In this document: positions 24,684 to 54,815 of the stretch, one piece after another
Layout of the letters: every line of letters begins with the position of its first letter
Position numbering within the stretch: position 1 is the first letter of the stretch
Source: Eubacteriales bacterium
Lineage (GTDB): Bacteria; Bacillota; Clostridia; Oscillospirales; JAAYXM01
Length of the DNA stretch: 64,000 bases
Reading direction: 5' to 3'
Assembly (NCBI GenBank): GCA_045539475.1
Contig: JAZQFJ010000097.1
Span: 343-64,342, forward strand
Made by a program: the position numbers and the translations under genes
Notes under the pieces: model-generated
What the model was told of the DNA's origin: nothing
Database searches by the model: none
Seen by the model: only the letters and a program-made list of their open reading frames with translations

Positions 24684-24711
24684 GCGAGATTACAACCGTT
24701 CGCCAGCTCAT
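24682..24711 (-). pseudogene. cas1: cas1 remnant (first ~10 codons only)
   Basis: ATG overlapping cas9 stop (ATGA) encodes MSWRTVVISR, the typical type II Cas1 N-terminus, then runs out of frame into cas2 sequence and stops at 24640. Confidence 0.85.
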
Positions 24712-28739: not shown

Positions 28740-28741
28740 AC

Positions 28742-28770
28742 TTGACATCCCCTTTTTAATGTGATATATT
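28742..28770 (+). promoter_or_regulatory. tracrRNA promoter overlapping the cas9 RBS/start region
   Basis: TTGACA-17 nt-TATATT just upstream of the anti-repeat. Confidence 0.7.
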
Positions 28771-31389: not shown

Positions 31390-31482
31390 TAAATAGCATA
31401 TATAATACAATGCCATAGTTATATATTGCGGGCGTGTATCACACAAAATTTTTTGTGTGATGTAATGATTAGAAGAAAGAAG

Positions 31483-33789
31483 ATGCAGATAAAAATGGCA
31501 ATAACTTATGAAAGAAAAAAGCAAAAGCACAGTAACATTTTATACACAATTATCACTGCGGTTTTAATATGTGCGGTTTTTTTGGCTATGGTTACGACTT
31601 TTTACATCAAGGCTGAGGACGATGCTTATGAAATGCTTCATATCCAGACAAAGCAGATAAAAGACGATTTAACCTTGCAGCTAAAATCGGACAGAGAAAA
31701 TCTTGTTACGATGGCAAGCTTTGCAGCAAAGCTTTACTCAGACGGTGAAAGCTATAACCTTATGTTTGAATCGTTTAAACCCATTGGCTTGCTTTCTAAT
31801 ATTGGTATATTAAATCCCGATAATACCTTTGTTACAAAAATGGGCTCGGTTAATCTGAACGGCAAAATTTCTTTTTCGGAGGAAGCTGCGCGCGGAGAAT
31901 ACATAAGCGGAAGAATCCCCGATCTTACGAGTGATGGAAAAGAACTTATAAGAAGCGCAGTTCCTATTAAAGTGAATGGAAAAACAGTTGGCATTTTATA
32001 CGGTGTAATTCCGCTTGACACGATAGGTGAAAAATATAACAATATGGCAAAAGAGCTTGATGCTCAGCTTTTTGTTTATGATAAAAAAACAGGAAAATTT
32101 GTTATAGACACACTGGGTAAAAACCCCGGCGAACTGTCGGATTTTAAGGACAGAGAATATAATAACGGATATTCTTATGAAGAGTTAGCTAACAATGATA
32201 AAGGCTATTCTTCGTTCAGGTCGATACTTACAGGGGAGGATTTGTACATTCATTATTCCACCCTTGAGGATTTTGGCTGGGGACTTATGCTTGCACGTTA
32301 TGAAAATCAGGTGTTTGCGGAAACGCATAAAATATCCCGCAATCTGTTTATTGTTTTTGCTTCAATCATTCTGATTGTATTAATTTACCTTGAGCTGATA
32401 TTAAACAGCGAAAAGAAAAGATCAAAATTAAATTCAGAAGCTTCAACCATCAGACATCTTCTTTTAGAAATAAACCAACAGCACGAAAACATAAATTCGG
32501 CTTTAAAGCGAATAAAAGAGTTTTCGAGTGCACGTTCCTGCTTTTTTGCGGATACCGACGGAGAAGATCATTACTATATCAGACCTTCTTTAAAAGAAAA
32601 ACGTTTGTTGGGAGACGAAAGAAAATATTTTATCGGTGAGCTTTTCAGGTATGCCGCGAAAATCCATACCGGCGATTCTTCTACAGGCTTTATGCGAATT
32701 ATTCCGAACGGACATCTTCTGAAAACGAATCCGGAATTATATCACTTTTTGTTAAATAACAGCATCAAAGATGTATCTTTTGCTATTATAACTGACAAAA
32801 ATAACCATGTCAGCATCCTGGGAACAATAAATCCCAAGAGAAGCTCCGATATCAGAAAGCTTATTGAAGATGTTGTAATTTGCTTTTCAATCGCTATATA
32901 CAACAAAAAACATCTTAACAGAACGGAGCTTGCCGCAACAACGGATGCACTTACCGGAGCTTTAAACCGTGTTGCATACAAAAAGGATATCCTGATGTTT
33001 GATAAAGAAAAACCGGAAGAATTTTCATGCATTTATATTGATGTTAATGAGCTTCACATCAGAAACAACAAGTACGGGCACGCCGCAGGCGATGAGATGC
33101 TTATCTATATTGCCAATTCGTTAAAAGAAGTGTTCTTCGGACATAGCATTTACCGTATGGGCGGCGATGAGTTCTTAGTATTCACAAAGAAAATCTCACA
33201 GAACGATGTCAAGCAGAATATAGAGACATTTATTGAGCAATTGAAGCCTATGGGTTACAATGTGGCTATCGGTATGTCTTACAGAATGAAAAACACAAAC
33301 TGCGAGGAAATGGTAAGAGAAGCTGAAGTAAGAATGTATGAAGCAAAGGCTCAGTATTATCAGAACAAAGAGCAGATAAGCATTTCTGAAGACAAAGACA
33401 AAAATTATGTTTACACGAAAACAGGAATAAGAGAAATTGATACTATGATATCCGTTATGAAAGAGCATTACAACGGCATATACAGAGTGTCGCTTGAAAG
33501 TGACAATGCTCACAGAATTCTTATGCCTGCTTATCTCGGTTACAAGGAGGATGAAGAAAACTTCTCAAAGTTGCTCTCAAAATACATTCACGATATTGTT
33601 CATCCTGATTTTAACAGAGCTGTTATGAGCTTCTTGAATTATGATGCAATAAAAAGGCAGATTTCGGAAGGTAAAACACCGTCAATTACATACAAAAAGA
33701 CACATGGCGAAACGGTTACGCTCAGCGTATACAACCTGACCAACGATAAAGATAATGTAAAAGATACTCTTTGGGTTTTTGCCAAATAA
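31483..33789 (+). CDS. Membrane sensor diguanylate cyclase (TM-Cache-like-TM-GAF-like-GGDEF-PAS-like)
   Basis: TDALTGALNR, DVNELHIRNNKYGHAAGD, intact RMGGDEF; two TMs flanking an extracellular domain; domain names other than GGDEF are tentative. Confidence 0.88.
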   Translation: MQIKMAITYERKKQKHSNILYTIITAVLICAVFLAMVTTFYIKAEDDAYEMLHIQTKQIKDDLTLQLKSDRENLVTMASFAAKLYSDGESYNLMFESFKPIGLLSNIGILNPDNTFVTKMGSVNLNGKISFSEEAARGEYISGRIPDLTSDGKELIRSAVPIKVNGKTVGILYGVIPLDTIGEKYNNMAKELDAQLFVYDKKTGKFVIDTLGKNPGELSDFKDREYNNGYSYEELANNDKGYSSFRSILTGEDLYIHYSTLEDFGWGLMLARYENQVFAETHKISRNLFIVFASIILIVLIYLELILNSEKKRSKLNSEASTIRHLLLEINQQHENINSALKRIKEFSSARSCFFADTDGEDHYYIRPSLKEKRLLGDERKYFIGELFRYAAKIHTGDSSTGFMRIIPNGHLLKTNPELYHFLLNNSIKDVSFAIITDKNNHVSILGTINPKRSSDIRKLIEDVVICFSIAIYNKKHLNRTELAATTDALTGALNRVAYKKDILMFDKEKPEEFSCIYIDVNELHIRNNKYGHAAGDEMLIYIANSLKEVFFGHSIYRMGGDEFLVFTKKISQNDVKQNIETFIEQLKPMGYNVAIGMSYRMKNTNCEEMVREAEVRMYEAKAQYYQNKEQISISEDKDKNYVYTKTGIREIDTMISVMKEHYNGIYRVSLESDNAHRILMPAYLGYKEDEENFSKLLSKYIHDIVHPDFNRAVMSFLNYDAIKRQISEGKTPSITYKKTHGETVTLSVYNLTNDKDNVKDTLWVFAK

Positions 33790-34201
33790 TAAAGTCGATA
33801 GCAAACGGAGGAATCATGAATTGACACTGCAAGTAATCAGGTTCGCAATTGTGGGAGCAATTTCCGCTTTTGTGGATGTGGGAGTTCTTGTTGCATTAAA
33901 AGAGCTTTTGTGCGTGGATGTCCTTATTTCTTCCGCAATCTCTTTTTGCGTTTCCGTCACGGTAAACTATTTTTTGAGTATGACCTTTGTTTTTAAAGGT
34001 AAAAATCAAAGTAAGCTTTATGAATTTATAATTTTTGTATTGCTTAGTCTTGGAGGACTGATGTTAAATCAGTTGATTTTGTGGATTGGTGTTAAATTTA
34101 CGTCCGTATATTACCTTGCAGTGAAATTTTTTGCTATGGTAATTGTGCCGTTTTATAACTTCATAACAAGAAAAATGTTTCTTGAGTCAAAGAGAAAATG
34201 A
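33779..34201 (+). CDS. GtrA-family small flippase
   Basis: RFAIVG, NYFLS..FVF, NFITRKMF; 4 TMs; start uncertain. Confidence 0.85.
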   Translation: MPNNKVDSKRRNHELTLQVIRFAIVGAISAFVDVGVLVALKELLCVDVLISSAISFCVSVTVNYFLSMTFVFKGKNQSKLYEFIIFVLLSLGGLMLNQLILWIGVKFTSVYYLAVKFFAMVIVPFYNFITRKMFLESKRK

Positions 34202-34796: not shown

Positions 34797-36311
34797 GTGG
34801 AAGAAAAAGACTCCAGAATTAAAAACAATCTGGTATCGTCGCTTGTGTATCAGGTTGTGCTTATAACACTCAGCTTTCTTTTGCCGAGATTGTACCTTGA
34901 GAATTTTGGCTCAGAGGTCAATGGAGTTCTTTCTACGATCAAGCAGATTTTTACATATATGTGCCTTCTTGAGGCTGGCGTGGGGCTTGCCACAACTCAG
35001 GCATTGTATAAGAAAATCGGCGAAAAGGATTACGAGAGTGCAAGCTCGGTTCTTTCGGCGACCAACGTTTATTACATTAAAACCGGAATAGTATACCTCC
35101 TTATTGTTTTTGTCATTGCGGCAGTGTATTCTTGCGCAGTATCGACATCAATAAACAGTGCTGTGCTGTTTTTTATCATTATATTGAATGCAATTCCGAG
35201 CCTGTTCAGTTATTTTGTTCAGGCAAAATACAGAATCCTTATGGAGGTGGATGGCAGAAGGTATGTAATTAACAATGCTGAAACAGTGCTTCAACTTGCT
35301 TCAAACGCAGGGAAAATACTTGTTCTGCTCCTTACTGACAGCCTCGTTCTTATCCAATTGGTTTATTGCATAATTGCTCTTTTGCAGCTTGGCTTTTTGT
35401 ATATATACGCAAAGCGCAGATATATATGGCTTAATTTAAAGGCAAAGCCGGATTTTGATGCCATCTCTCAGAAAAATTCTGTTTTGGTGCATCAGCTTTC
35501 GGGAATGGTGTTCAACAACACCGATGTGATACTCATTTCTCTCCTTTGTGATTTTAAGGCAGTAAGTATCTATGCCATATACAATATCTTCTTTTCACAG
35601 GTGCAGAATTTCATAACGAATGTTGTTTCGTCCTTCACTTTTGCTTTGGGACAGATGTTTAATACAGACAGAGAAAAGTTTGACAAGCTGTTTAATGCAT
35701 ATGAAACCTTTTATATAATGATAACCTGCGTGATTTACACGCTCATGGCGGTGTTTTTGCTGCCTTTGATACAGATATATACAAGCGGAATAAATGATGC
35801 AGAGTATACAAATACATTTCTGTTGTTGCTGTTTGCAATAATGAATTTGCTTGCGTGCGGCAAGCTTCCTGCAACAGGTATCATTGAATATTCAGGAGCT
35901 TTTGAAAAAACCCGTTCTCATGCAATATTGGAAATGGTTATTAATATAACAGTTTCAGTTGTGGCAATTGCATATATGGGAATATGCGGAGCAATTCTCG
36001 GAACAATTGCAGCGCTTGTATATCGCGGGATAGTAACGATTTATTATTCAAATAGGAAAATTCTGAAAAGAAAACAAAGCTGTACATACAAAATCCTGAT
36101 TTCAAACTGGGCAGTTTTCGCTTTGGTTATGGCGGTGTTTTTTGTTGATACATTCAGCAATATGTCTTTTCTGCGGCTTTTGCTGAATGGAATAATCCAT
36201 TCAATATGGATTGCCGGGGTATACTTGCTTGTCAATTTTGCATTTAACAGGTCTGCGTTTAAAACGCTTTTTGAATTGTATAAGGGGAAAAGGGCATATG
36301 AGCATTCCTAA
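34797..36311 (+). CDS. Wzx-type polysaccharide flippase
   Basis: Multi-TM; FGSEVNG, LEAGVG, NTDVILIS motifs. Confidence 0.82.
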   Translation: MEEKDSRIKNNLVSSLVYQVVLITLSFLLPRLYLENFGSEVNGVLSTIKQIFTYMCLLEAGVGLATTQALYKKIGEKDYESASSVLSATNVYYIKTGIVYLLIVFVIAAVYSCAVSTSINSAVLFFIIILNAIPSLFSYFVQAKYRILMEVDGRRYVINNAETVLQLASNAGKILVLLLTDSLVLIQLVYCIIALLQLGFLYIYAKRRYIWLNLKAKPDFDAISQKNSVLVHQLSGMVFNNTDVILISLLCDFKAVSIYAIYNIFFSQVQNFITNVVSSFTFALGQMFNTDREKFDKLFNAYETFYIMITCVIYTLMAVFLLPLIQIYTSGINDAEYTNTFLLLLFAIMNLLACGKLPATGIIEYSGAFEKTRSHAILEMVINITVSVVAIAYMGICGAILGTIAALVYRGIVTIYYSNRKILKRKQSCTYKILISNWAVFALVMAVFFVDTFSNMSFLRLLLNGIIHSIWIAGVYLLVNFAFNRSAFKTLFELYKGKRAYEHS

Positions 36312-37032
36312 AGTGATTTATTATTGCTGGTTTGGAAAGGGAAAACTTCCGAAACTTGCACAAAAATGTATAAAAAGCTGGAAAAAATACTGTCCCGATT
36401 ACAGAATAGTCTGCATAAATGAAGAGAATTTTGATGTGAGTCAGAACAGATATGCCGCGGAGGCATATAAAGCCGGTAAGTGGGCGTTTGTCAGCGATTA
36501 TGCCCGGCTTTGTGTGATTTATGACAATGGCGGAATTTATCTGGATACAGACGTTGAGCTTATAAAGCCTCTTGATAAGCTTGTTGAAGAAAGCGGATAT
36601 ATGGGCTTTGACGATAACGGAATAATTTCAACAGGACTCGGCTTTGCATGCGAAAAGGGAAGTGAATTAATTGCCGCGTTGCTTGCGGATTATGAAGGAA
36701 TCCCTTTTATTCTTCCTGACGGCACATATGACATCACCCCCTGTCCTGAGAGAAACACAGAAACTTTGATAAAGCTCGGAATGGACATTGCCGATAAAGA
36801 TCAGGTGTTTATGGGAATGCGGATGCTGCCTGAAGATTATCTATGTCCGATGAAATATTACAGCGGAAGAAAAATAATAACCGAAAACACGTATTCAATA
36901 CATCATTTTTGTGCATCGTGGATATCTCCGACAGCAAAGAGAACGCTGTTTGTAAAACGGATTGTCGGTGTAAAGCTGTATGATAAGCTGTACGGAAAAT
37001 TTTTGCATAAATTCAAGTGGTTGGAGTGGTAA
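36298..37032 (+). CDS. GT32 (Och1-like) glycosyltransferase
   Basis: IPKVIYYCWFG, AFVSDYARL, GGIYLDTDV, IHHFCASW. Confidence 0.88.
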   Translation: MSIPKVIYYCWFGKGKLPKLAQKCIKSWKKYCPDYRIVCINEENFDVSQNRYAAEAYKAGKWAFVSDYARLCVIYDNGGIYLDTDVELIKPLDKLVEESGYMGFDDNGIISTGLGFACEKGSELIAALLADYEGIPFILPDGTYDITPCPERNTETLIKLGMDIADKDQVFMGMRMLPEDYLCPMKYYSGRKIITENTYSIHHFCASWISPTAKRTLFVKRIVGVKLYDKLYGKFLHKFKWLEW

Positions 37033-38585
37033 ACTTGCCTGAGAGAGCATTGAAAAAACTTAATGCATATATTTTGCCTGAGTGGAAGGTCTGTTTTTTT
37101 GCGGCTCTCGTGGTTGGCATACTTTCTCATCTGTATAAAATAACAAACTGGCTTCCTAATTGGGATTCGCTTGTGTTCAGATACGATTCGCAGAATATGA
37201 TTGGTCTCGGACGGTGGTTTTTGCCCGTTGTCTGTTCGTTCAGTTCGTTTTATGATTTACCATTTTTAAACGGTATTGTGGCAATTCTGTTTCATGCACT
37301 CGGCGCTGTTTGTATCTGCAGAATACTCAATGTCCGAAAAAAAATTACCGCATTTCTAATAGGAGCAGTAATTGTTTCGTTTCCTACGGTTACATCTGTT
37401 ATGATGTACAACTACGTGGCAGACGGCTACAGTATAGCGTTTTTTCTTTCAACGCTCGCGGCGCTGCATATGACTAAAGGAAAGAACGGATATATTATCT
37501 CAGCTGTGCTTATCGCGTTGTCAGTGGGTATTTATCAGGCGTATATTACCGTTACAATAATGCTTGTTTTATTTTGGCTGATTGATGAAATAATTTATAA
37601 TCACGAAGCTTTCGTGAATGTTCTGAAAAAAAGCGTGTGTATGATGCTGTCCGGAATATCCGGTATGGTACTGTATGGCATTATTCTAAAAGTGATTCTT
37701 GGTGTTTCTTCTGCAGAGTTGCTTGATTATCAGGGAATAAATTCAACGGTATCTTTGGCGAATATAGACCTGCCCGGCTCGCTTTATGCAGTAAAAGAAA
37801 CTTTTGTTAACTGCTTTTTTGATTTATCGGAAGGCGTAAATGTATATGTTGTTTTGAATGTTTTTATTTTGCTGTTCACACTTTCTCATTATGTTAAGTA
37901 TATAGTGAGAAATGAAATTTACAGGAAAACCATTAATGTTTTTGCTGTTGCACTCTTAGCAGTCGCGCTTATATTCGGAGCCGGTGCGCTGGCATTTGCA
38001 AATCCGGAAATTGATTATCACAATCTTATGCTTATGGGTTATTCCGTCTTTTATATATTTTTCATTATCCTTTATGAGAGGGGAAACGATACAAACGAAA
38101 GACATACCTGCATCAAGTGCTGGATTGTGCTGATAGCATCGGCGGCAATAATCACAAATCAGGTTGTTATATCAAATGTGAGTTATCATAAGGCGCAAAT
38201 CGCCTATGAAAAGTCATACGGTGTTCTTATGCGTATAGCAGACCGCATAGAAAAAACGCCCGGTGCGGAAAAATGCGATAGGCTTCTTGTTATCGGGGCA
38301 CTTAAAAACAGCGAAAGATACAGCGTTAACCTCTCGCCGGACATTACCGGAATAACGGATGGATATATAATCCGCGCAGATGATGAAACGGTAGGTCAGA
38401 GCGTGCTCAGCAGCGCACTCCGCGACTATTGTGAAATGGATTACGAGATTGTGAGCGGAGAAGAAAAAAAGATGCTGGCACAGAACGAAAAGATTGAAGC
38501 TATGGGCGAATGGCCGGCAAAGGACTGTGTGGTAGCAGTGGATGGCACGATAGTGATAAAGCTTGGAACAGAAGGTGAGTGTTAA
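37017..38585 (+). CDS. GtrII-family (GT-C) membrane glucosyltransferase
   Basis: GRWF and SVGIYQAY motifs, ~10 TMs plus C-terminal extracellular domain ending WP..D..IVIKL. Confidence 0.75.
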   Translation: MVGVVNLPERALKKLNAYILPEWKVCFFAALVVGILSHLYKITNWLPNWDSLVFRYDSQNMIGLGRWFLPVVCSFSSFYDLPFLNGIVAILFHALGAVCICRILNVRKKITAFLIGAVIVSFPTVTSVMMYNYVADGYSIAFFLSTLAALHMTKGKNGYIISAVLIALSVGIYQAYITVTIMLVLFWLIDEIIYNHEAFVNVLKKSVCMMLSGISGMVLYGIILKVILGVSSAELLDYQGINSTVSLANIDLPGSLYAVKETFVNCFFDLSEGVNVYVVLNVFILLFTLSHYVKYIVRNEIYRKTINVFAVALLAVALIFGAGALAFANPEIDYHNLMLMGYSVFYIFFIILYERGNDTNERHTCIKCWIVLIASAAIITNQVVISNVSYHKAQIAYEKSYGVLMRIADRIEKTPGAEKCDRLLVIGALKNSERYSVNLSPDITGITDGYIIRADDETVGQSVLSSALRDYCEMDYEIVSGEEKKMLAQNEKIEAMGEWPAKDCVVAVDGTIVIKLGTEGEC

Positions 38586-39452
38586 GTGGTATATCTTTGT
38601 GCCGATGATTACGGATTGTGCAAAGAAATCTCCGAACACATACAGCGGTGTATTGACGCGGGTGCGCTTAATAAGGTCAGCGTTTTCCCGAATTTTGACG
38701 CGGTGGATTTGCAGAAGATACGGAATAATAAAAACATCCGTATGTCCCTGCATCTCAACCTTGTCGAGGGAAAATGTATGTCAGAGGCTTATGAAATTCC
38801 CCTGCTTGCAGATGAGAAAGGGAATTTTAAGCAAACCTTTATCGGACTGCTGGTACATAGCTTAATCCATAGAAAAAAGTTTGAAGCGCAGGTGTGCAAG
38901 GAAATCAGGGCGCAGGTTTTATTTTGGAAAAAGGCGATAGGAGAAGATGTTCCTTTTTGCATAGACAGCCATCAGCATACGCATATGATTCCTGCCGTGT
39001 TCAGGGCGTTGCTTAAGGTTCTATGTGACGAAAAAATCAAACCGGAACACATAAGACTTCCCGCTGAACCGTTTTGGATATACATAAAAACACCGTCACT
39101 ATATTTCACATACAGTGTGGTTAATGTTATCAAACAATGGCTGCTGAGCTTCTTATGGCTGCTGAATAAAAATCAGGTAAAGAAACATAAAATACCGGTA
39201 TCGCATTTTTTCGGGATTCTTTTTTCGGGAAAGATGGATGAAAAAAGAGTAAGCAAAATTCTGCCGAAGTACGTTAAAATGGCAGAAAAAGACGGACAGG
39301 ATATAGAGGTTTTGTTCCATCCGGGATATATAGACAAAAACAAACTTGGTTTTAAAGAAAAAAATGTAGTGTTCGAAAAATTCTATATATCGGAAAACAG
39401 AAAAACAGAATTTGATTCTGTTATGAAAATATCAGAAAGAAGTGTGCTGTAA
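38586..39452 (+). CDS. ChbG/HpnK/YdjC-family deacetylase
   Basis: ADDYG, SLHLNLVEG, IDSHQHTH, FHPG. Confidence 0.85.
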   Translation: MVYLCADDYGLCKEISEHIQRCIDAGALNKVSVFPNFDAVDLQKIRNNKNIRMSLHLNLVEGKCMSEAYEIPLLADEKGNFKQTFIGLLVHSLIHRKKFEAQVCKEIRAQVLFWKKAIGEDVPFCIDSHQHTHMIPAVFRALLKVLCDEKIKPEHIRLPAEPFWIYIKTPSLYFTYSVVNVIKQWLLSFLWLLNKNQVKKHKIPVSHFFGILFSGKMDEKRVSKILPKYVKMAEKDGQDIEVLFHPGYIDKNKLGFKEKNVVFEKFYISENRKTEFDSVMKISERSVL

Positions 39453-40132
39453 TGCCCTACATCGAACAGGATAAGGTGGATGCAAAGACAAGAGAAAAAC
39501 TTGAGGCAATTATTGAAAAATCATATGCCTCTTACTGGAGGAAAAAAAGACTTTTCGACATCTTTTTTGCAACGCTGATTTTGTTGTTTTTTCTGCCGCT
39601 TATGATAGTTATTTCTTTGATAATCGTAATTGACGACCCAAGCGCAGGCCCTTTTTTCAGGCAGATAAGAGTTGGACGCCACGGGGAAGAGTTTTATATG
39701 TATAAGTTTCGGACTATGCGGGCTAATGCTGATGAGATGATTGAGGAGCTGGCTAAACGTAACGAAATGGACGGACCGGTTTTCAAAATGAGAGAGGATC
39801 CGCGAATAACGAGAGCGGGAAAGTTCCTGCGAAAAGTTTCTCTTGATGAGCTTATGCAGTTTTTCAATGTTCTTAAGGGTGATATGACGCTTGTGGGTCC
39901 GAGACCTCCTCTTCCGAGAGAGGTTGAGTTCTATACGGATTATCAGAAGCTGCGTCTTCTTGTTACGCCCGGCATAACCTGCACGTGGCAGATTTCAAAA
40001 AACAGAAATGATATTCCGTTTGAACAGTGGGTTGAAATGGATATCGAATACATACAGACAAGAACATATCTCAATGATTTGAAAATAATGCTGAAAACGC
40101 CGATAGTTATGCTTACAGCTACCGGCAGGTGA
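39452..40132 (+). CDS. Priming (undecaprenyl-phosphate) sugar transferase
   Basis: KRLFDI, YKFRTM, DPRITR, SLDEL, VGPRP, PGIT. Confidence 0.92.
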   Translation: MPYIEQDKVDAKTREKLEAIIEKSYASYWRKKRLFDIFFATLILLFFLPLMIVISLIIVIDDPSAGPFFRQIRVGRHGEEFYMYKFRTMRANADEMIEELAKRNEMDGPVFKMREDPRITRAGKFLRKVSLDELMQFFNVLKGDMTLVGPRPPLPREVEFYTDYQKLRLLVTPGITCTWQISKNRNDIPFEQWVEMDIEYIQTRTYLNDLKIMLKTPIVMLTATGR

Positions 40133-41278: not shown

Positions 41279-41291
41279 GGGTTTGTTAGAT

Positions 41292-42524
41292 ATGTATAAC
41301 AGAACAAATTTTGAAGAAATGGAAACGAGCAGGGAAAGAGTGAAAGAGTTTTTTCGGCAATTAGTACCGGCTGAGTTTTATGATACATGGGCAGAAACGT
41401 TTGAGATTGAGTATGCCGACGAAAAGCAGGTGTTGGTTACATATCACGGTGCTGAGAGTATCAAAAAATTCAAAAAAGAATGCAAAGAACCCCTGTCGCT
41501 CTGCATTTATTCGATAATGGGGTATAAAAAAAGAATAAAAATATCAAAAAAGAAAAGTCACAAAAGCTCAAACCACAAAGCAAAAAAGAAAATACGGGCT
41601 GCAAAATTCTTTGTTATAGGTATGATATTTGTCTTTTTTGCAACATCAATCATCGTTGTTATGTGCAATTATATCGGCAATCGGGATTTCAGAGAAACTT
41701 TTTACAACGTTAGTAGCCTTAAGGTTGACAGCTCGGTTCGCGTTATTCAGTTGTCTGATTTGCATGGCTCCTCCTACGGTGAAAAGAATGCAAAGCTGCT
41801 CTCTCGTGTTGAAGCTTTGAAGCCTGATATAATAATCTGCACCGGCGATATTGTTAATTCGGCGCGTGATGACGTTGATTACGCTGCGGATTTAGGTGAG
41901 AAGCTTGCAAAGATTGCACCTTCGTATTATATATACGGTAACAACGAGGTTGAAAGCATTTACGGCTTTCCGCTTAATGAAGCAGAGCTTGATCGAAAAT
42001 TCGGCTTTCGGAAGGATAATCGCGACGAAACAGCACTTTTGAAAATCGAAGATTCTTTTGAAAAAACACTTGAGAGTACCGGGATAAAGGTTCTGAAAAA
42101 CGAAAAGGACACAATAAAGGTAAAAACCATGACGATTGATGTGTATGGAGTTTTAACCTCGAATCCGTCCTCATTCTGGTCATATTCGGAAAAAGCCTTC
42201 GCGGATTATATCTATGAAAACACAGACAATCTTAAAATAACCGCAGTGCATGAGCCGTTTATTTTCCAGGAGTTCCAGCCTGAGTTTTGGGGAGATTTGA
42301 TGGTTTGCGGGCATACTCACGGCGGTGTGGTGCGCGTGCCGCTTCTCGGACCGATTTTCACGCACGAGGATGGCCTTTTCCCCGAAAGAGACGGAAACTT
42401 TGTTTACGGAAGATATGACGCTGCGGGAAAACCTCTCATCGTAAGTGGCGGACTTGAAAATTTGAATGTTTTCCGTATAAATAATCAGCCGGAGCTGGTC
42501 ATTATCGATATTAATAAATTTTAA
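41292..42524 (+). CDS. Membrane-anchored calcineurin-like metallophosphoesterase with extra N-terminal cytoplasmic domain
   Basis: SDLH, TGDIV, GNNE, HEP, GHTHGG; single TM preceded by a Lys-rich stretch. Confidence 0.85.
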   Translation: MYNRTNFEEMETSRERVKEFFRQLVPAEFYDTWAETFEIEYADEKQVLVTYHGAESIKKFKKECKEPLSLCIYSIMGYKKRIKISKKKSHKSSNHKAKKKIRAAKFFVIGMIFVFFATSIIVVMCNYIGNRDFRETFYNVSSLKVDSSVRVIQLSDLHGSSYGEKNAKLLSRVEALKPDIIICTGDIVNSARDDVDYAADLGEKLAKIAPSYYIYGNNEVESIYGFPLNEAELDRKFGFRKDNRDETALLKIEDSFEKTLESTGIKVLKNEKDTIKVKTMTIDVYGVLTSNPSSFWSYSEKAFADYIYENTDNLKITAVHEPFIFQEFQPEFWGDLMVCGHTHGGVVRVPLLGPIFTHEDGLFPERDGNFVYGRYDAAGKPLIVSGGLENLNVFRINNQPELVIIDINKF

Positions 42525-42544: not shown

Positions 42545-43900
42545 ATGGTTACTGCACTATTTCAAAAATTAATCATTTTAATTGTCGGTGTATTGTTTCT
42601 GACATCGGCGGCTTTGATATATTTCCGTTCTAAAAATGTAAATCGCGCAGAGCGCACCCAGATTTTCAAAACGGCAGAATATCTTAATGCGTGGATAATT
42701 CTCATCTGCTTTATCACGACGATGGTGTATGGGATTTTCAATCACTATGAACTTAAAAAGTCTGTTCACGCAATTATCTCGCTGAACTATTCCGAGGCAT
42801 CGCAAGCGCTCAACTCCAACGGCACCCGATATAATATGGCAGAAATTATCAGCGATGAGGTTGTGGACAGAGCTATAAAAAAGGGCGCACTTGAGGATGT
42901 GACGGTAAAACAGCTTAAAAGCTGCCTTGTGGTTTATCCGTGTGTGCAGGGCGGTGTCGGAGATGAGTCTGAATATCATATTTCCACAGAGTTTGCGGTA
43001 GAGTATCACGCATCAAAGGATACAGACCATCTTGATTCGGAAAATGTTATTAAACTGATAACTGCGGCTTACAAGGAATACTATATAGAAAAATATACTG
43101 ATAATTTCAGCCTGTCTTCTGAGAAACCGGATTTTGCAAAAATGGAGTATATGGATATAGTATCGTATCTTGATAAGGAAACGGGCGCTGTTCTTAATTA
43201 TTTGTACGGTATGGCTGAAAAGAACCCGAGCTTCGTTACTGAAAACAACAGCACCTTCAATTCCATTGCAGGCAAGGTGTATCAATTTAAGGAGACCCAG
43301 ATAAATCAGAATTTAAGGTCTCTTATCCTGCAGAACGGAGTTGTAAGGGACAAGGGTGGATACATCGACCGATTGGCGTATCAAAATAAAAATGTTGATT
43401 TTGACCGCCGGAAAAACAATGCTTCCTATAATCTTTGCAACCAGGCAATTGAAATGTACAGCGAGGAAATGACCAGGGTGGTTCTCGTTCCGACATGGGA
43501 TCAATCCGGCAAATACTATATGGGAAGAACAAAGGTCGGCGTTGATGAGTTGTCCGTTATGGCAACAAATTTCAGCAATTATGTGGCATCTAACGAGAAG
43601 GAGATTATGGACAATAATCTTATAATCAATAAGATAGCTGAAAAGACTCCTAATGCCGGACTTTATGCGTCGGCGGATTCGTTGATAGAATCCATTTATA
43701 ACAGCATCAAGGGATTTGAAAAAGAAGCGATAAACGCGGGCAGAGAATATTCAAGCCACAAAATGAACCAGTGCATTGCAGTGACCATTTACGGCATCTC
43801 GCTTATGAATGAGCTGAAAACGCTTTTGCTTTTTGCAGCATTTGTGTATGTATCGCTTATTTTGCGTCATATTTCGAAGAAATTCCCTAAAAAGGCATAA
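42545..43900 (+). CDS. Polysaccharide co-polymerase-like membrane protein
   Basis: N-terminal TMs, large helical extracellular region, C-terminal TM; shares motifs with the downstream gene. Confidence 0.55.
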   Translation: MVTALFQKLIILIVGVLFLTSAALIYFRSKNVNRAERTQIFKTAEYLNAWIILICFITTMVYGIFNHYELKKSVHAIISLNYSEASQALNSNGTRYNMAEIISDEVVDRAIKKGALEDVTVKQLKSCLVVYPCVQGGVGDESEYHISTEFAVEYHASKDTDHLDSENVIKLITAAYKEYYIEKYTDNFSLSSEKPDFAKMEYMDIVSYLDKETGAVLNYLYGMAEKNPSFVTENNSTFNSIAGKVYQFKETQINQNLRSLILQNGVVRDKGGYIDRLAYQNKNVDFDRRKNNASYNLCNQAIEMYSEEMTRVVLVPTWDQSGKYYMGRTKVGVDELSVMATNFSNYVASNEKEIMDNNLIINKIAEKTPNAGLYASADSLIESIYNSIKGFEKEAINAGREYSSHKMNQCIAVTIYGISLMNELKTLLLFAAFVYVSLILRHISKKFPKKA

Positions 43901-43917: not shown

Positions 43918-45798
43918 ATGATGAAAAATTTTCAGATTTTAAGATATTTAAAAAAACTTTTGCCACTGATAATAGTTTTTTGCTTGGTGGCGACATATGC
44001 TGTTTATTTCAAGCTTTCAGGAGCTAATTCTTATATAGCTTCTGAGGTTATCCATTATAATGACGAGCAGGCAGAAAAAGGCCTTGCTCCCACCGGTGAT
44101 AAGCTGGATGTAAACGAAATTAAATCATCTGCGGTAATGTCAAAGGTTGTTGACAAGATGGGGCTTACGGGTATTTATTCGGTTGACAGCCTTATTTCAA
44201 GAATAAACATAACGCCTATTGAAGACGCAGACAAAGTTGCTCAGAAAGAGGCAAAGCTTGAAGAGGGTGAGGAATACATATATGAGCCAAGCACATTTAT
44301 TGTTTCCTTTGCGGCAACGAGCGGGGAAGGACCGGATTTTGCCCGAACAATACTTGATGAAACACTGGATGTTTATTTTGAACGCTTCAGCCAAAAGTAT
44401 GTAAATGTTGCTCCTGCAAACAATACCATTGAAAATCTTGATAAAAATGATTATGATTTTATTGAGATGATGGAGCTGATTGATACAAGTATTGACAACA
44501 CGCTCAGTACGTTGTATCAGAGAATGGAGCAGAACAATTATTACCGATCAACCGAAACCGGGGTCTCATTTGCAGAGCTTGCAGATGATTTTAATTATTT
44601 AAGACAGGTGAAGGTTTCGTCTCTGTTTTCCAAGATTTACAAGTACCAGATAACGAAGGACAAATCGGTGCTAATTTCAGACTATACAACAAGAATAGAT
44701 AACAACAACATTTCTAATGCAAAAGATGCGAGCATCGTAGAAGATGTTGTAACCGTAATTGATGCTTATGTCAAAAAAATGCGCGAGTCGGGGAATACCA
44801 ACATCACATATGAGTATATCCTTGATAATCTCCACGAGAGGAATCTGCAGGAGTATGTCGGTGATCAGACAGTAACATACGATGAGCTGATTTACAGCTG
44901 GCGCGATCATAATGAAAGCCGCGAACATGCAATTATTGATTCTGCATATTGCTCTTATGTAATAAACACGTTCTCGAATTGCACAGGAAATTGCGGAGAG
45001 CAGTGCAAAACTTCGGGAAAGACCTGCACAGAGCTTTGCAACACCCAATATGCCGCCATAAGAGAGAATGTTGAGAAGGAAATCAACACGCTTCTTGACG
45101 AGTTGACCGCTCTTTACGGTATAACCATGAAAACCAACGATGAATACAACAAATACCTCGGTGCAAGCTATATTTCAGTGCTGTCTTCGGCGTCTGTAAG
45201 AGAAAGCGTTAATGTTCCGTTGTATACGGCAATTGCATTTTTCTTCCTTGTGGTTCTCTGCTGCGGAGGTGCAATTGTTTTAGGCCGTGCGGGCGATATA
45301 ATAAACTACATCTTCTATACAGACCATCTTACCGGATATAACAACAGAGCATATCTTGATAAATACTTAAAATCAAAGGATAAAAAGCTTCTTGATGACG
45401 GCGTTGTGTACTGTTTGGTTGATATATCGAATCTGGTGCACATTAATACAGAGTACTCAAGGGATGTGGGCGATGAGATTATAAAGATGTTCGCAAGCTA
45501 CATAAAAGAAACTTTCGGCAAATCAAAGACTGAATATATTTATAACGGAAACGGCAGCTTTGTTATGTTGACGGAAGAGGCTGATTACATCACCGTTGAA
45601 GATATTATGCGGCTGTTCAGACTGCGTCTTGATGAAAGAGAAGAACACAGAAATGTCGTTATTGAGTACAAGATTGGTATTGCTGAAACCTTTAAAGAAA
45701 ACAAAACGGCAAGGAAATTGCTTTCCGAAGCAATTGAAAGCAAAAAAGGTTATGTTTCTTTCCTTGAGCAGAACAAAAACGAGCAACAGAAGGTATAA
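43918..45798 (+). CDS. Co-polymerase-like protein fused to a degenerate GGDEF domain
   Basis: TM-extracellular coiled coil-TM, then TDHLTGYNNR, DISNLVHINTEYSRDVGD and YNGNGSF in place of GGDEF. Confidence 0.75.
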   Translation: MMKNFQILRYLKKLLPLIIVFCLVATYAVYFKLSGANSYIASEVIHYNDEQAEKGLAPTGDKLDVNEIKSSAVMSKVVDKMGLTGIYSVDSLISRINITPIEDADKVAQKEAKLEEGEEYIYEPSTFIVSFAATSGEGPDFARTILDETLDVYFERFSQKYVNVAPANNTIENLDKNDYDFIEMMELIDTSIDNTLSTLYQRMEQNNYYRSTETGVSFAELADDFNYLRQVKVSSLFSKIYKYQITKDKSVLISDYTTRIDNNNISNAKDASIVEDVVTVIDAYVKKMRESGNTNITYEYILDNLHERNLQEYVGDQTVTYDELIYSWRDHNESREHAIIDSAYCSYVINTFSNCTGNCGEQCKTSGKTCTELCNTQYAAIRENVEKEINTLLDELTALYGITMKTNDEYNKYLGASYISVLSSASVRESVNVPLYTAIAFFFLVVLCCGGAIVLGRAGDIINYIFYTDHLTGYNNRAYLDKYLKSKDKKLLDDGVVYCLVDISNLVHINTEYSRDVGDEIIKMFASYIKETFGKSKTEYIYNGNGSFVMLTEEADYITVEDIMRLFRLRLDEREEHRNVVIEYKIGIAETFKENKTARKLLSEAIESKKGYVSFLEQNKNEQQKV

Positions 45799-45837: not shown

Positions 45838-47142
45838 TTGGAAAGTAAAATTCTTGAGAAAACCAAAGTTTTTTACTTTATGGTTGTGGCTGTGATGATG
45901 TATTATTTTCTCAATGAATACATTGATATAGGTCTGCACGTTACATACCGCCATGCATTCGCTCTTGTTCTCTTCTTTTCTGCAGCGCTGCTGTTTCTCT
46001 ATAAACCTAATATTGCAAGGGGCGTTACGGCTTTTGGCGATGCGTGCGTTTACAGCGTTCCGCTTGCCGTCACAACTGTGGTTTCTCTGTTCATATGGTT
46101 TATGGAAACTGTGGATGTGGGAGTTATTTCGAGAGGACTTTCAAGCTCATTTATATATGCGAATATGTTGTCCTTTGCTCTGGCAGCCGGCGCAATGCTC
46201 TATATCTTTGGCAGACGCGGCGTGTGGTATAATCTTGCGGCTATTCTGATTGCGAACATCCTTATGATTGTAACAGTTATTGCCGAGAACGGTCTTGGAA
46301 ATTATATTTCAGAATTCATAACCCTCATAACTACCTTTGCAGGTGTGACGGGAGATATTATAGTTCAGGCAGAAATTCATGAGCTTGCATTCTGTCTTGG
46401 AGCGTATCTGATTTATATGCTTTTCAAACCGAAAAAGGATATAATATACTTTATACTGCTTCTTTTAAGTCTTTTCTGCTTCTTATCGGCATTCAAGCGA
46501 ATTGCAATTATCGCAATTGCAATAGCGCTTGTGTTTGGGTATCTTTTAAAATTCATTGCGCGATACAATAAAAAAACAGCAAGCAGACTTGTTACATTCC
46601 TTACGCTTGTTGTGATAATACTTCTCATAAGCTATATTGCACTTATCAAGGCAGATGCCTTTGAACTTCTCGAAAAAGCGGGAATAAATACAAGCGGACG
46701 CGTTGAAATTTATAATGCGGTAGACGATTTTTACGAATTCAATCCCGGTTTTTTAGGTAATGGAATAGGATTTCTTACATATCAGCTCAACACGTTTATG
46801 AATGTCGGTGTTGCCTCTGTTCACAACGATTTTCTCCAGCATTTTATTGATCTTGGTTTCTGGGGATATATTATATGGCTTGTTTCAATGACGTTGGTCA
46901 GAGTGTGGTATTTCGGAAGGCGTGGCAACGTAGAGAATGCAATTGTTGCATTTATGCTTACCCTTTATCTTATAATCGTATCCACAACAGACAACACAAT
47001 GAACTATCCGCTTCTCACAGGGGTTCTTGCAATACTGATGATGGGAAACGGATTTGAAAAAAATGTACGCGATACCGAGCTTAAAATGTTTCATTATGTT
47101 TCAGAGGAAAACAGGGAAGAGGAAAGTGACTCATTGTTATGA
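45838..47142 (+). CDS. Wzy polymerase / O-antigen-ligase-family protein
   Basis: ~11 TMs; KR after TM, SGR, GNGIGF, VHNDFL...LG motifs. Confidence 0.75.
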   Translation: MESKILEKTKVFYFMVVAVMMYYFLNEYIDIGLHVTYRHAFALVLFFSAALLFLYKPNIARGVTAFGDACVYSVPLAVTTVVSLFIWFMETVDVGVISRGLSSSFIYANMLSFALAAGAMLYIFGRRGVWYNLAAILIANILMIVTVIAENGLGNYISEFITLITTFAGVTGDIIVQAEIHELAFCLGAYLIYMLFKPKKDIIYFILLLLSLFCFLSAFKRIAIIAIAIALVFGYLLKFIARYNKKTASRLVTFLTLVVIILLISYIALIKADAFELLEKAGINTSGRVEIYNAVDDFYEFNPGFLGNGIGFLTYQLNTFMNVGVASVHNDFLQHFIDLGFWGYIIWLVSMTLVRVWYFGRRGNVENAIVAFMLTLYLIIVSTTDNTMNYPLLTGVLAILMMGNGFEKNVRDTELKMFHYVSEENREEESDSLL

Positions 47143-51531: not shown

Positions 51532-52896
51532 ATGCACGTTTTAGAATATCCATATGCGATTATAACTATTCTTGCGATAGTTTTTCTCGTGATGTGCCTT
51601 ATAGGACTGTACTTCACTGTAAAATCCGTAAAAACGGCAAAAGAAACGCCGGAAAAGAGTTTTTGCGGCATGGGTAAAATAGAAAATGATTTTGAACGGA
51701 TGGGAAATGCACGCCAAAACCGCTGTGTTGTATATATCTCAATATCGCTTGACAACATGAAGCGTTTGTATCCGGAATCGAGAGCCGGCAGGATGCATGA
51801 ACAGCTCAGGAAACTTTTGCTTGAGTTTTTTTGCATTGCTGCAGGCGGAGAAATTTCGATTTACGGAAAAGATAATTTTATTGTGTTGAGCAGATTGGAA
51901 GCAGAGAAAACGGAAAAATATATTGACAAATGCTTTGGAGAGATTAATGCACTTTTCGTAAAGCACAGTGCGGTAAATGTTGTCCGTGCGAATTTCGGTT
52001 ATTATTGCACAAGTGCAACAGATGTGCCGTTTAAAACCGCGCTTGGAAGAGCTAAGCAAGCGTGCAGTATGGCTGAGGACAAAGGCGTTTTGTATTGCAG
52101 ATGGGACAATCTCAACGGAAAAGAATTTGAAAGAAAAATAAAAATAGAAAACAGCATACACAACGAAATTGACAACAACAGATTTTTCCTTGAGTATCAG
52201 CCGATTATGGATGCCGGAACACAAAAAATCATAGGTGCTGAGGTTTTGTCGCGTCTTAATTCTCCGACAGAGGGAGTTCTCACACCGAACTTTTTCCTTT
52301 CGGCGGTAAACAATGTGGGGCTAAATGAAAAATTTGATTACTACATATTTGAAAAAAACTGCAAGTGGATTTCAAGCGATAAAGAAACACGTATGAAATA
52401 TGTATATACAATCAATTTTTCACGAAGCACTCTTTGTGATGCAAATCTGGCAGACAATATAATAAGAATTGTAGAAGAGTACGGTATTAATTATTCGTGC
52501 ATAGCAGTTGAAATTCTTGAGGATAAAAGCCTTAATGGTGAAGAAAAAGGAGTAATGGTTAAAAACCTATCCCGTTTGAAAGAAAAAGGCGTTCTTATTC
52601 TTTTGGACGATTTTGGTAAGGGCTATACCGGTTTTGGGGATTTGTCAGACTTTGATATAAGCATTGTGAAAATTGATAAGGCAATTACGCAGAATGCAGT
52701 GAATCCAACGGGAGCTCTGATTCTTAAGAACATTATCAGGACAGCACATGATTTGGGGTATAAGGCGTTGTGTGAAGGTATAGAGACCGAGGAACACAGA
52801 GAAATGGCAATAGAGGCAGGCTGTGATATGCTTCAGGGATATTATTTTTACCGCCCGATGCCGGTTGCAAAATTTGAAACTCTATTTAAAAAATAG
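51532..52896 (+). CDS. TM-degenerate GGDEF-EAL c-di-GMP phosphodiesterase
   Basis: YGKDNF replaces GGDEF; EAL domain with YQP, EVL, EILE, DDFGKGY, KID, EGIE, QGY. Confidence 0.88.
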   Translation: MHVLEYPYAIITILAIVFLVMCLIGLYFTVKSVKTAKETPEKSFCGMGKIENDFERMGNARQNRCVVYISISLDNMKRLYPESRAGRMHEQLRKLLLEFFCIAAGGEISIYGKDNFIVLSRLEAEKTEKYIDKCFGEINALFVKHSAVNVVRANFGYYCTSATDVPFKTALGRAKQACSMAEDKGVLYCRWDNLNGKEFERKIKIENSIHNEIDNNRFFLEYQPIMDAGTQKIIGAEVLSRLNSPTEGVLTPNFFLSAVNNVGLNEKFDYYIFEKNCKWISSDKETRMKYVYTINFSRSTLCDANLADNIIRIVEEYGINYSCIAVEILEDKSLNGEEKGVMVKNLSRLKEKGVLILLDDFGKGYTGFGDLSDFDISIVKIDKAITQNAVNPTGALILKNIIRTAHDLGYKALCEGIETEEHREMAIEAGCDMLQGYYFYRPMPVAKFETLFKK

Positions 52897-52908: not shown

Positions 52909-53832
52909 ATGTTATCCGTAATCGTTCCTGCATACAACGAAGAAAAATGCATTAAGCGCGCATATTCTGCAATACATTCCGTGCTTACGGAGAATAATAT
53001 TGACAGTGAGTTTATTTTTGTTGATGACGGCTCATCCGACCATACGTATGAAGAGATATGCGAGCTTTCTTCGAAAGAAGAAAATATATCCGGAATTCGG
53101 TTTTCAAGAAATTTTGGCAAGGAATCGGCAATATCGGCGGGACTTGCCGCTGTGAGCGGAAGCTGTGCCGTTGTAATCGACTGCGACCTTCAGCATCCAC
53201 CAGAGAAAATAGTCGAAATGTACCGTTTGTGGGAAAAAGGCTATGAGATTGTTGAAGGAATAAAAAGAGAGCGTGGGCAGGAAAAAAAGACGTATAGAGT
53301 AGGGGCAAAAATCTTCTATTCTGTTATCAGCCGTATGGCAGGTTTTGATATGGCAAACTCATCGGACTTTAAGCTTCTGGACAGAAAAGTGGTGGATGTT
53401 CTGAACCGTATGCCCGAAAAAGGATTTTTCAGAGCGATATCTTATTGGGTGGGATATAACAAAACAACGGTTGAATATGATGTGGCTGAGCGCGTAGATG
53501 GTCAGTCAAAGTGGACAAGCCGGGGGCTTATAAAATATGCGCTTTCAAATATTTCGTCATATTCTACCGCACCGATGCAGACCGTAACGGTTTTGGGGGT
53601 TGTAATGCTTATAATCTCGGTCATCTTCGGTATATGGGCGCTTATTGATAAGATAATCGGCAGAGCGCTTGAAGGTATGACAACGGTTATAATTATCACA
53701 ATTTTCATAGGAAGCATAATTATGATAAGCCTTGGTATCATAGGTTATTACATCGCGCGTATTTATGAGGAAATCAAAGGCAGACCGAAGTATATAATAT
53801 CTTCTTCGGTGAAGAGTGTGAGGGGAAAATAA
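52909..53832 (+). CDS. GtrB-like polyprenyl-phosphate glycosyltransferase (GT2)
   Basis: VPAYNEE, DDGSSD, RNFGKE, DCDLQHPPE, two C-terminal TMs, EIKGRPKY. Confidence 0.9.
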   Translation: MLSVIVPAYNEEKCIKRAYSAIHSVLTENNIDSEFIFVDDGSSDHTYEEICELSSKEENISGIRFSRNFGKESAISAGLAAVSGSCAVVIDCDLQHPPEKIVEMYRLWEKGYEIVEGIKRERGQEKKTYRVGAKIFYSVISRMAGFDMANSSDFKLLDRKVVDVLNRMPEKGFFRAISYWVGYNKTTVEYDVAERVDGQSKWTSRGLIKYALSNISSYSTAPMQTVTVLGVVMLIISVIFGIWALIDKIIGRALEGMTTVIIITIFIGSIIMISLGIIGYYIARIYEEIKGRPKYIISSSVKSVRGK

Positions 53833-53864: not shown

Positions 53865-54815
53865 TTGTACAAGGAGGTAGTGCAGAAAATGGACAAACTG
53901 ATAGTAAATATGCTTCTGTTCGCGCTTTTTGCGCAATCTGCAATTGTTGTAGCGTTACTTCTTCGTGGCAGACGGATTAAAAAGGAAAATGAAGCAGATG
54001 CCGAAGAGCAAAGCACCTATTTGCGCATCAGGGAAGAGGAAAGGAAAATAGCGGAAAACATTTCGGAGGGCATCAAAAACAGTGAGTTTAAGATGTATCT
54101 GCAGTTTATTGTTGACGGCAAAACGAAAAAAATTGTTTCTGCTGAAGCGCTTTCAAGGTGGGATAATCCCAAGCAGGGAATTATAATGCCCGTAAAGTAT
54201 ATAGGAGATATGGAAACAACGGGGCTTATCAGCAAGCATGACTTTTATATGTTTGAGCTTGCTTGCCGTCAGCTTGAAAAATGGAACGGCACGGAGTTTA
54301 AAGATATTTCTGTTTCCTGCAATTTCACAAGAATAACCCTTTCCGAAGGAAATCTTGTGGAAACCTTAAAAAAGATTTCAGAGAAATACAATTTTGATAA
54401 ATCAAAGCTTATAATAGAGATAACAGAGGATGCCATTGAAAAAGATAGGGAGGCTGCAAAGAAAAATGTTCTTCTTTGCAAAGAACTTGGTTTCAGAATC
54501 CATCTTGACGATCTGGGAAGCGGCTATACGTCTTTAGCAAATCTCTGTGATTATCCGATTGATGTTGTTAAAATTGACCGTGATATTCTCCTCAAAACGG
54601 ATACCCAGAAGGGAAAAGCCCTGCTGTCAGGAATTGTTGCACTTGTGCACAGACTCGGCATTTCGGTTATATGTGAGGGAGTGGAAACCGAGGAACAGCA
54701 CACGCTTGTGTCGGATTCCGGATGTGATTATATTCAGGGATGGTATTACTCAAAGGCGATGCCTTTGGAAGAATGTGAGTCATTTATAAAAAAACACGAT
54801 CTGAAGTTTTTGTAG
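53865..54815 (+). CDS. TM-EAL c-di-GMP phosphodiesterase
   Basis: EALSRW, EITE, DDLGSGY, KID, EGVE, QGW; one N-terminal TM; start uncertain. Confidence 0.88.
   Translation: MYKEVVQKMDKLIVNMLLFALFAQSAIVVALLLRGRRIKKENEADAEEQSTYLRIREEERKIAENISEGIKNSEFKMYLQFIVDGKTKKIVSAEALSRWDNPKQGIIMPVKYIGDMETTGLISKHDFYMFELACRQLEKWNGTEFKDISVSCNFTRITLSEGNLVETLKKISEKYNFDKSKLIIEITEDAIEKDREAAKKNVLLCKELGFRIHLDDLGSGYTSLANLCDYPIDVVKIDRDILLKTDTQKGKALLSGIVALVHRLGISVICEGVETEEQHTLVSDSGCDYIQGWYYSKAMPLEECESFIKKHDLKFL

Follow-up and report, generated by a model that had tools for sequence, protein, structure and literature searches.

The 64,000-nucleotide stretch of contig JAZQFJ010000097.1 analysed here (hereafter the window; Eubacteriales bacterium, assembly GCA_045539475.1) carries an exopolysaccharide cluster of ~23 kb (31.4–54.8 kb; window 31426–54815), all on one strand, which includes the gene for a polysaccharide co-polymerase (PCP)-like protein with a degenerate GGDEF tail, here called PCPb (Table 1). 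PCPb combines the topology of a PCP and a PCP-like modelled fold with a GGDEF-fold tail that is incapable of cyclase activity, and is best explained as one subunit of a two-subunit co-polymerase in a Wzx/Wzy-dependent exopolysaccharide island. The open reading frame (ORF) is not a chance one, matching 1170 proteins at E ≤ 0.001 among 7999 scored candidates, and the best 120 of these 1170 matches are 85–100% identical. An earlier note on this DNA had described a transmembrane (TM) helix, a large outer helical region, a second TM helix and a cytoplasmic domain; its coordinates and the peptide strings that it quoted are all present in the translation, and the hydropathy scan and the model helices both give the two TM segments, which flank an outer domain of ~405 amino acids. 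Also as it described, a Wzy-like gene follows directly (its product matches Pfam Wzy_C), and the same cluster encodes a diguanylate cyclase and EAL proteins; the GGDEF motif of the cyclase is intact, and the EAL proteins number two. Three further findings had escaped that note: the paralog PCPa just upstream, the conserved metallophosphoesterase, and that the only GGDEF and EAL matches of the genome lie in this island.

Table 1. Positions in the window of PCPb, its parts and other genes of the exopolysaccharide cluster (aa, amino acids).
Feature	Position	Strand	Basis and remarks
PCPb, co-polymerase-like protein with degenerate GGDEF tail	43918..45798	+	626 aa, P0001; ATG start; ORF and AlphaFold2 model
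TM1, residues ~13-31	43954..44010	+	Hydropathy scan; model helix 15-35
Extracytoplasmic PCP-type domain, residues ~32-437	44011..45228	+	Alpha/beta base and long helices
TM2, residues ~438-456	45229..45285	+	Hydropathy scan; model helix 433-467
Juxtamembrane G-R-x-x-D (G456-D460), after TM2	45283..45297	+	Near-invariant in the GGDEF-like clade (alignment)
Degenerate GGDEF-fold domain, residues 467-605	45316..45732	+	Pfam and NCBIfam GGDEF; VIA matches
Y-N-G-N-G-S-F (Y542-F548) at the RxGGDEF position	45541..45561	+	Alignments to DgcR and to the cluster cyclase
PCPa, divergent PCP paralog	42545..43900	+	451 aa, P0273; three TM helices; without cytoplasmic domain; hhalign
Membrane-anchored metallophosphoesterase	41283..42524	+	Pfam Metallophos, E 5.1e-12; one TM at 109-127, preceded by Lys/Arg-rich stretch
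Wzy-type polymerase	45838..47142	+	Pfam Wzy_C, E 2.3e-10
Cache-GGDEF diguanylate cyclase	31426..33789	+	Pfam; R-M-G-G-D-E-F intact
Membrane-anchored EAL protein	51532..52896	+	454 aa; Pfam EAL, E 3.3e-55; EAL motifs intact by eye
Membrane-anchored EAL protein	53865..54815	+	316 aa; Pfam EAL, E 2.6e-59
Multi-TM protein, probable Wzx-type flippase	34797..36311	+	At least 10 hydrophobic segments
Initiating phospho-sugar transferase	39452..40132	+	Pfam Bac_transf, E 4.8e-64

An HMMER search with residues 1–467 of PCPb matched 656 cluster representatives (50% identity) at E ≤ 0.001, 122 of them at E ≤ 1e-30. When 75 homologs were scanned with Pfam, GGDEF was found in 32, EAL in two and Wzz (PF02706) in 10 at E ≤ 0.001, four of the latter above the curated cut-off and six below. 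The four passing homologs (P0198, P0215, P0263 and P0264) match the N-terminal query at E 1e-26 to 1e-42 and thereby link PCPb transitively to Wzz. The full-length AlphaFold2 model (mean pLDDT 89.0; 70-row family alignment) filled the Foldseek and VIA searches with GGDEF matches, so that the N-terminal part was modelled and searched separately (pLDDT 87.1; 36 rows); it consists of a small alpha/beta base and helices of 25–42 residues. Among the Foldseek matches listed for this model the first 18 chains are all PCPs, with Wzc and WzzB/WzzE followed by KpsE and FepE (best match Wzc 9r68_I, E 7.7e-6, TM-score 0.23). VIA-align against 48,161 chains put Wzc first (9r62_I; Z 13.7, 251 residues aligned, rmsd 13.6) and KpsE second (Z 11.2, 218 aligned, rmsd 11.0), and also returned WzzE (Z 10.2, 280 aligned, rmsd 17.5); these three are the only matches extending over residues 3–461, the remaining rows covering a helical hairpin only. 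The earlier note had taken the N-terminal part for a co-polymerase of the Wzz/Wzc kind and had proposed structure prediction with Foldseek as a check, and both the ranking of folds, with PCPs first, and the transitive Wzz link agree with it.

The models support a PCP fold for the outer domain, with a poor global superposition. The low Foldseek TM-scores to PCPs (0.23–0.29) and the high VIA rmsd values weigh against this assignment, as does the failure of Pfam Wzz to match the N-terminal 467 amino acids of PCPb even at E ≤ 10, where only noise was seen. PCPb itself has neither a Wzz nor a GNVR match in Pfam, and its N-terminal alignment profile, compared with PDB sequences, returned no PCP but coiled-coil noise only (PI3K regulatory subunit, E ~1e-3). 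A Pro/Gly-rich motif at TM2 is a feature of the PCP superfamily. In the 70-row PCPb family alignment (A1), on which all conservation counts out of 70 are based, the TM2 glycines are kept (G448, 60/70; G456, 66/70) and there is no conserved proline, P434 being the third commonest residue in its column (5/70). The outer helical domain of PCPb also contains a Cys-rich insert with seven cysteines (residues ~345–376; window 44950–45045), which was modelled with lower confidence and whose cysteines lie outside the family consensus.

The gene immediately upstream encodes PCPa, which the A1 profile matches at E 3.9e-18 and which hhalign aligns with the PCPb N-terminal profile over 371 columns (probability 98.9%, E 1.2e-17). 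These two matches identify it as a PCP paralog and rule out our first guess, a flippase. PCPa has one further TM helix at its N terminus, and its cytoplasmic end is short. The two genes are adjacent in 27 of the 28 assessable loci whose co-polymerase carries a tail (one is without the pair, and two further loci are cut by contig ends), and the same holds for 15 of the 20 tail-less loci. When PCPa was modelled in complex with the outer part of PCPb, the score was 0.69 (runs 0.70, 0.69 and 0.69) against 0.00 for the best control, the runs sharing at least 76% of contacts at a partner pLDDT of at least 76; the mark used for such models is one that 116 of 157 solved complexes and 2 of 215 mismatched pairs attain. 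The modelling supports binding of PCPa to PCPb; on the other side, the score may partly reflect likeness to solved PCP homo-oligomers.

The tail matches Pfam GGDEF (PF00990) over residues 467–605 (E 6.8e-13; 49.1 bits against a cut-off of 23.8) and NCBIfam returned generic GGDEF matches only, while in VIA the full-length model matched GcbC (5euh_A; Z 18.4, rmsd 2.5, 149 aligned) and LapD (3pjx_A; Z 17.9, rmsd 2.5, 164 aligned). Aligned by phmmer with DgcR, a cyclase of solved structure, PCPb has D-I-S in place of the strand-1 D-I-D and L-V in place of F-K, keeps the N and G-D positions, and shows I-Y-N-G-(N)-G-S-F where DgcR has the signature R-F-G-G-E-E-F; the alignment to the cluster's own cyclase agrees. 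A degenerate GGDEF domain with YNGNGSF and without a canonical RxxD, in the place where Wzc carries its kinase, is what had been noted before, and the Pfam, fold and alignment results all accord with it. The family's conserved motif at the signature position is Y-N-G-x-G-Q-F, and among the 76 representatives of at least 580 amino acids none has GG[DE]EF, whereas Y-N-[GDNE] occurs in 63 and the juxtamembrane G-R-x-x-[DE] in 66. Judged from its sequence, the PCPb tail cannot be a cyclase, because both signature acidic residues, the first metal-binding Asp and the phosphate positions are replaced or unconserved. Public annotation of close homologs as ‘diguanylate cyclase’ and the Pfam GGDEF match would speak for an active enzyme with an unusual motif, but with both signature acids replaced, no GG[DE]EF among the 76 representatives and the first metal Asp (D502 in PCPb) unconserved, the family having mostly Arg, Gln or Asn there, this is scarcely credible.

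A different set of positions is conserved in the tail. Within the motif these are Y542 (60/70), N543 (66/70) and F548 (57/70), and elsewhere D469 (65/70), N476 (69/70), R477 (63/70), D481 (64/70), R515 (57/70), R599 (62/70) and L601 (68/70), together with N510 (52/70) and D519 (56/70, plus 12 Asn). At the membrane, G456 is joined by R457 (67/70) and D460 (59/70, plus Glu in 9/70). The conserved motif set suggests that the tail has retained a non-catalytic function. We take N510 and D519 to be the equivalents of the guanine base-binding Asn and Asp, D502 that of a metal binder, and certain C-terminal positions those of phosphate binders.

A FastTree phylogeny was built from 111 N-terminal domains and rooted on PCPa, leaving out rows below 430 amino acids and five rows with a shifted or truncated N terminus. 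The GGDEF-like forms come together in a single clade of 85 rows (72 GGDEF-like; support 87), and the two EAL-tailed forms nest in the other, mostly tail-less clade (support 98; 99–100 locally). Because the two kinds sit in different clades, the tree means that domains of the cyclic diguanylate (c-di-GMP) type were fused to the same end of this protein on two separate occasions. Neither EAL-tailed form (P0252, P0269) has the G-R-x-x-D motif. A remodelled pocket might sense guanosine triphosphate (GTP) or guanosine tetra- or pentaphosphate ((p)ppGpp) instead of c-di-GMP and so tie polymer synthesis to nucleotide or energy status; the conserved guanine-binding equivalents Asn510 and Asp519 would suit it, and the Foldseek matches include 9g85 and 9g86, by title PleD with c-di-GMP and ppGpp or pppGpp. 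We consider this very improbable, as the phosphate and metal positions are lost and relatives acquired an EAL domain independently, which speaks for c-di-GMP in particular.

Exactly two GGDEF matches, the cluster cyclase and PCPb, and two EAL matches, both in the cluster, were found in the whole genome, so the island appears to bring its own c-di-GMP signal. PilZ and the c-di-GMP-I and c-di-GMP-II riboswitches gave no match in this genome, which is 97.4% complete in 105 contigs, so that absences from it are unproven; the c-di-GMP-I search matched none of 14 control genomes, yet did match in other genomes. By elimination, with no riboswitch found, the dead GGDEF tail would be the only recognisable candidate effector here. 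Five island carriers (G409, G406, G383, G109 and G296) of 37 searched likewise show two GGDEF matches, one being the tailed co-polymerase and the other a ~770-aa ORF of the size of the cluster cyclase, which lies on the contig of the co-polymerase in four carriers and on another contig in G296. Each of the five has two EAL matches, both on the island contig in four of them, while G296 has one beside the cyclase on its other contig; none of the five has a PilZ match or a c-di-GMP-II riboswitch.

All GGDEF and EAL proteins matched in the genome (the cyclase, PCPb and the two EAL proteins) are membrane-anchored and encoded in one operon-like cluster, which would also suit signalling from the outside in. 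GGDEF cyclases act as dimers, and the co-polymerase could report the assembly state of the polymer by pairing its dead GGDEF domain with that of the cyclase, in a non-productive heterodimer, or with an EAL protein, thereby tuning c-di-GMP. Five of the seven divergent GGDEF-like loci have no cyclase or EAL gene nearby, however, and we hold signalling in this direction to be improbable.

The metallophosphoesterase encoded beside the pair is predicted to turn its catalytic domain to the outside of the cell, because a Lys/Arg-rich stretch precedes its single TM helix. One relative, P0214, is a fusion of a PCPb-type part, a GGDEF-like domain, a TM helix and a Metallophos domain, and the extra TM helix in between matches that topology. 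Of the assessable tailed loci, 28 of 29 have the metallophosphoesterase gene, as against 4 of the 20 loci without a tail (adjacent in three), a tally over non-independent lineages that is an observation and no statistical test.

As an explanation of the whole, we lean slightly towards PCPb acting in a two-subunit co-polymerase whose dead GGDEF domain couples polymerisation to the c-di-GMP circuit of the island. PCPb and PCPa would assemble into a mixed ring acting together with the neighbouring Wzy polymerase, and the dead GGDEF domains beneath this ring would take the regulatory place of the Wzc tyrosine-kinase ring, coupling polymerisation or release to the circuit formed by the island's Cache-sensor cyclase and its two EAL phosphodiesterases. 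Such coupling might occur through c-di-GMP bound at a non-canonical candidate site, the remodelled active-site hairpin with Asn510 and Asp519, with the juxtamembrane G-R-x-x-D as a second candidate site; alternatively, the dead GGDEF domains might dock the cyclase or the phosphodiesterases. The signal could then be passed outward to the conserved extracytoplasmic metallophosphoesterase, whose cleaving of the polymer off its lipid carrier is speculation on our part. Gating of PCPb by c-di-GMP through its tail, which the earlier note had proposed beside gating by GTP or pairing with the cluster cyclase, is a plausible hypothesis. A bolder version, which we put forward as possible but doubtful, would have a horizontally spreading island carry a c-di-GMP circuit complete in itself, with the tail as its only protein receptor; c-di-GMP-driven association of the tails in the PCPa/PCPb ring would then switch Wzy polymerisation, replace the tyrosine phosphorylation cycle of Wzc and perhaps signal to a polymer-releasing outer metallophosphoesterase.

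Several observations tell against c-di-GMP coupling through the tail. The I-site RxxD is absent (the tail reads G-K-S-K-T there, at a position unconserved in the family alignment), and no known c-di-GMP binding motif was found in the tail sequence. The positions that we take to bind metal and phosphate are unconserved, and the C-terminal phosphate-binder positions are lost in the family alignment. G-R-x-x-[DE] is kept in four tail-less relatives (P0138, P0139, P0140 and P0182), because of which G-R-x-x-D may be a membrane-boundary feature unrelated to nucleotides; on the same ground we downgraded it from a relocated I-site to a candidate only. Cyclase and EAL genes are not enriched beside GGDEF-like forms as compared with tail-less forms, two of the seven divergent GGDEF-like loci (L069 and L094) having c-di-GMP enzyme genes within ~9 kb, against four of the 20 tail-less loci; neighbours were labelled by blastp with the window proteins at E ≤ 1e-4 or 1e-5, and divergent genes may escape. 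Finally, a c-di-GMP-I riboswitch lies within the island of two of the five carriers, at the operon head, with the cyclase on one side and the small EAL gene on the other (G406:C17:19269-19352 and G409:C6:26235-26317; 62.1 and 61.0 bits), and c-di-GMP has another effector in those two carriers.

The missing I-site, the unconserved phosphate and metal positions and the lack of enrichment of c-di-GMP enzyme genes would all fit a dead GGDEF domain that binds no nucleotide and serves as a structural oligomerisation or docking module, e.g. as a platform for the cyclase and the phosphodiesterases, the effector being elsewhere, for instance in a glycosyltransferase or in a receptor that was not recognised. 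In LapD and FimX the degenerate GGDEF domain binds no ligand, and the GGDEF domains of both are among the best structural matches. Surface-type residues of the tail (N543, R457, N476, D481 and R599) are nevertheless near-invariant at a family identity of 25–50%, the base-binding Asn/Asp equivalents N510 and D519 are kept, and no other candidate receptor was found in the genome by the PilZ and riboswitch searches. A purely structural or docking role seems rather unlikely to us, and we retain the co-polymerase with a c-di-GMP-coupled tail as our preferred explanation.

Among known systems, PCPb resembles Wzc (PCP-2a, Escherichia coli; PDB 7nhr, 9r62 and 9r68), the best whole-domain match, which has the same succession of TM helix, outer helical domain, TM helix and cytoplasmic regulatory domain and likewise belongs to a Wzx/Wzy-type cluster. 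Wzc, however, ends in a bacterial tyrosine (BY) kinase with Walker motifs and a Tyr cluster, whereas the PCPb tail has the GGDEF fold only; the PCPb host belongs to the Clostridia, and a second PCP paralog is the partner. A Wza-type partner was not seen among the Pfam matches of the cluster, and no gene for a BY-kinase or P-loop kinase was found in the cluster or the window; the only such pair, of the CpsC/CpsD type, is a classical Wzz+GNVR gene (250 aa) beside a P-loop AAA_31/CbiA gene (253 aa) on another contig of the same genome. The CpsC/CpsD-type PCP-2b proteins of Gram-positive capsule loci are likewise membrane co-polymerases of Firmicutes in a Wzy-dependent locus, but the outer domain of PCPb is about three times larger, its regulatory module is fused and GGDEF-like, and its cluster has no kinase or PHP phosphatase partner.

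LapD, an inside-out c-di-GMP receptor, resembles PCPb in having a degenerate GGDEF domain inside, an outer domain of large size and, also outside, an enzyme as conserved partner (for PCPb, putatively the metallophosphoesterase). In LapD, however, c-di-GMP is bound by an EAL domain and the enzyme under control is a protease; its outer fold differs, and the partner of PCPb is a candidate from the gene neighbourhood. PssE of Listeria and PelD, which serve synthase-dependent pathways, are also membrane-anchored inactive GGDEF proteins encoded in exopolysaccharide operons with c-di-GMP enzymes, but are without a PCP domain. PssE binds c-di-GMP with a Kd of 0.79 uM via an RxxD five residues upstream of the motif (PMC4125290), and an RxxD at that distance is absent from PCPb. 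The parallel that had been drawn with PelD and PssE does not extend to the canonical I-site. Chloroflexota proteins of ~370 amino acids (ESM Atlas automatic names) carry the same Pfam pair, with Wzz in 83–98% and GGDEF in 99–100% of members (score 0.94, 163 shared features); they are much shorter, come from another phylum and represent a second, shorter co-polymerase–GGDEF architecture.

At E ≤ 1e-20, matches to the N-terminal profile occur in 81 of 399 genomes sampled from the class (55 of 217 genera), mostly in two adjacent genes, and a full-length PCPb gene is present in ~10 of 32 genomes of the window's own GTDB family. What had been proposed as a new co-polymerase class from a single case is thus a member of a widespread, uncharacterised family of Clostridia. 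The whole cluster is syntenic in 13 loci with 12 GTDB family codes, at 44–92% protein identity to the window (68–86% for the outer part of PCPb) and 67–77% nucleotide identity, whereas the housekeeping protein MnmE is only 36–41% identical in the five of those genomes tested. Because the identity of the cluster is so far above that of MnmE, these comparisons point to a horizontally spreading island.

No description of a PCP–GGDEF fusion was found in the full-text literature, coverage of which excludes most subscription journals. To our knowledge, direct post-translational control by c-di-GMP has been described mainly for synthase-dependent exopolysaccharides (cellulose, alginate, Pel, PNAG and Pss). 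If c-di-GMP does act through the tail, a Wzx/Wzy co-polymerase would for the first time be seen under direct control by a second messenger, exerted via a new site (the Y-N-G-x-G-Q-F hairpin and/or G-R-x-x-D). The finding bears on the regulation of Wzx/Wzy-route co-polymerases that have no tyrosine kinase. With a single cyclase, a pair of EAL proteins and a single dead GGDEF domain found in this genome, all in one island, the family offers a simple test system. The family is common in gut-type Clostridia and could matter for the building of surface polymers there, because 81 of the 399 class genomes match.

The cluster begins with the Cache-GGDEF cyclase, followed by GtrA, a hexapeptide acyltransferase, a protein with at least 10 TM segments, a Gly_transf_sug glycosyltransferase, GtrII and YdjC, and continues with Bac_transf, a GT4 glycosyltransferase, the metallophosphoesterase, PCPa, PCPb, Wzy, GT4, three GT2, EAL, GT2 and EAL. 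The multi-TM protein, our probable flippase, has no Pfam match; in its nearest ESM Atlas clusters Polysacc_synt is found in 21–56% of members, which we regard as a lead only. Residues 45–200 of the 454-aa EAL protein, after its TM helix, looked by eye like another degenerate GGDEF domain, a reading rejected for want of support from hhalign (4.1% probability). An Rfam scan of the whole window at gathering thresholds gave no match, and promoter and terminator scans gave no more hits than shuffled sequence (55 against 50.4 and 19 against 16.4 respectively). Three genes of the cluster, GtrA-like (33779–34201), GtrII-like (37017–38585) and GT2 (52909–53832), resemble a three-part system that glucosylates a polymer outside the cell. 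Just upstream of the cluster, on the minus strand (24708–28748), lies a full-length type II Cas9 gene, whose 1346-aa product contains REC, HNH, RuvC and PI domains.

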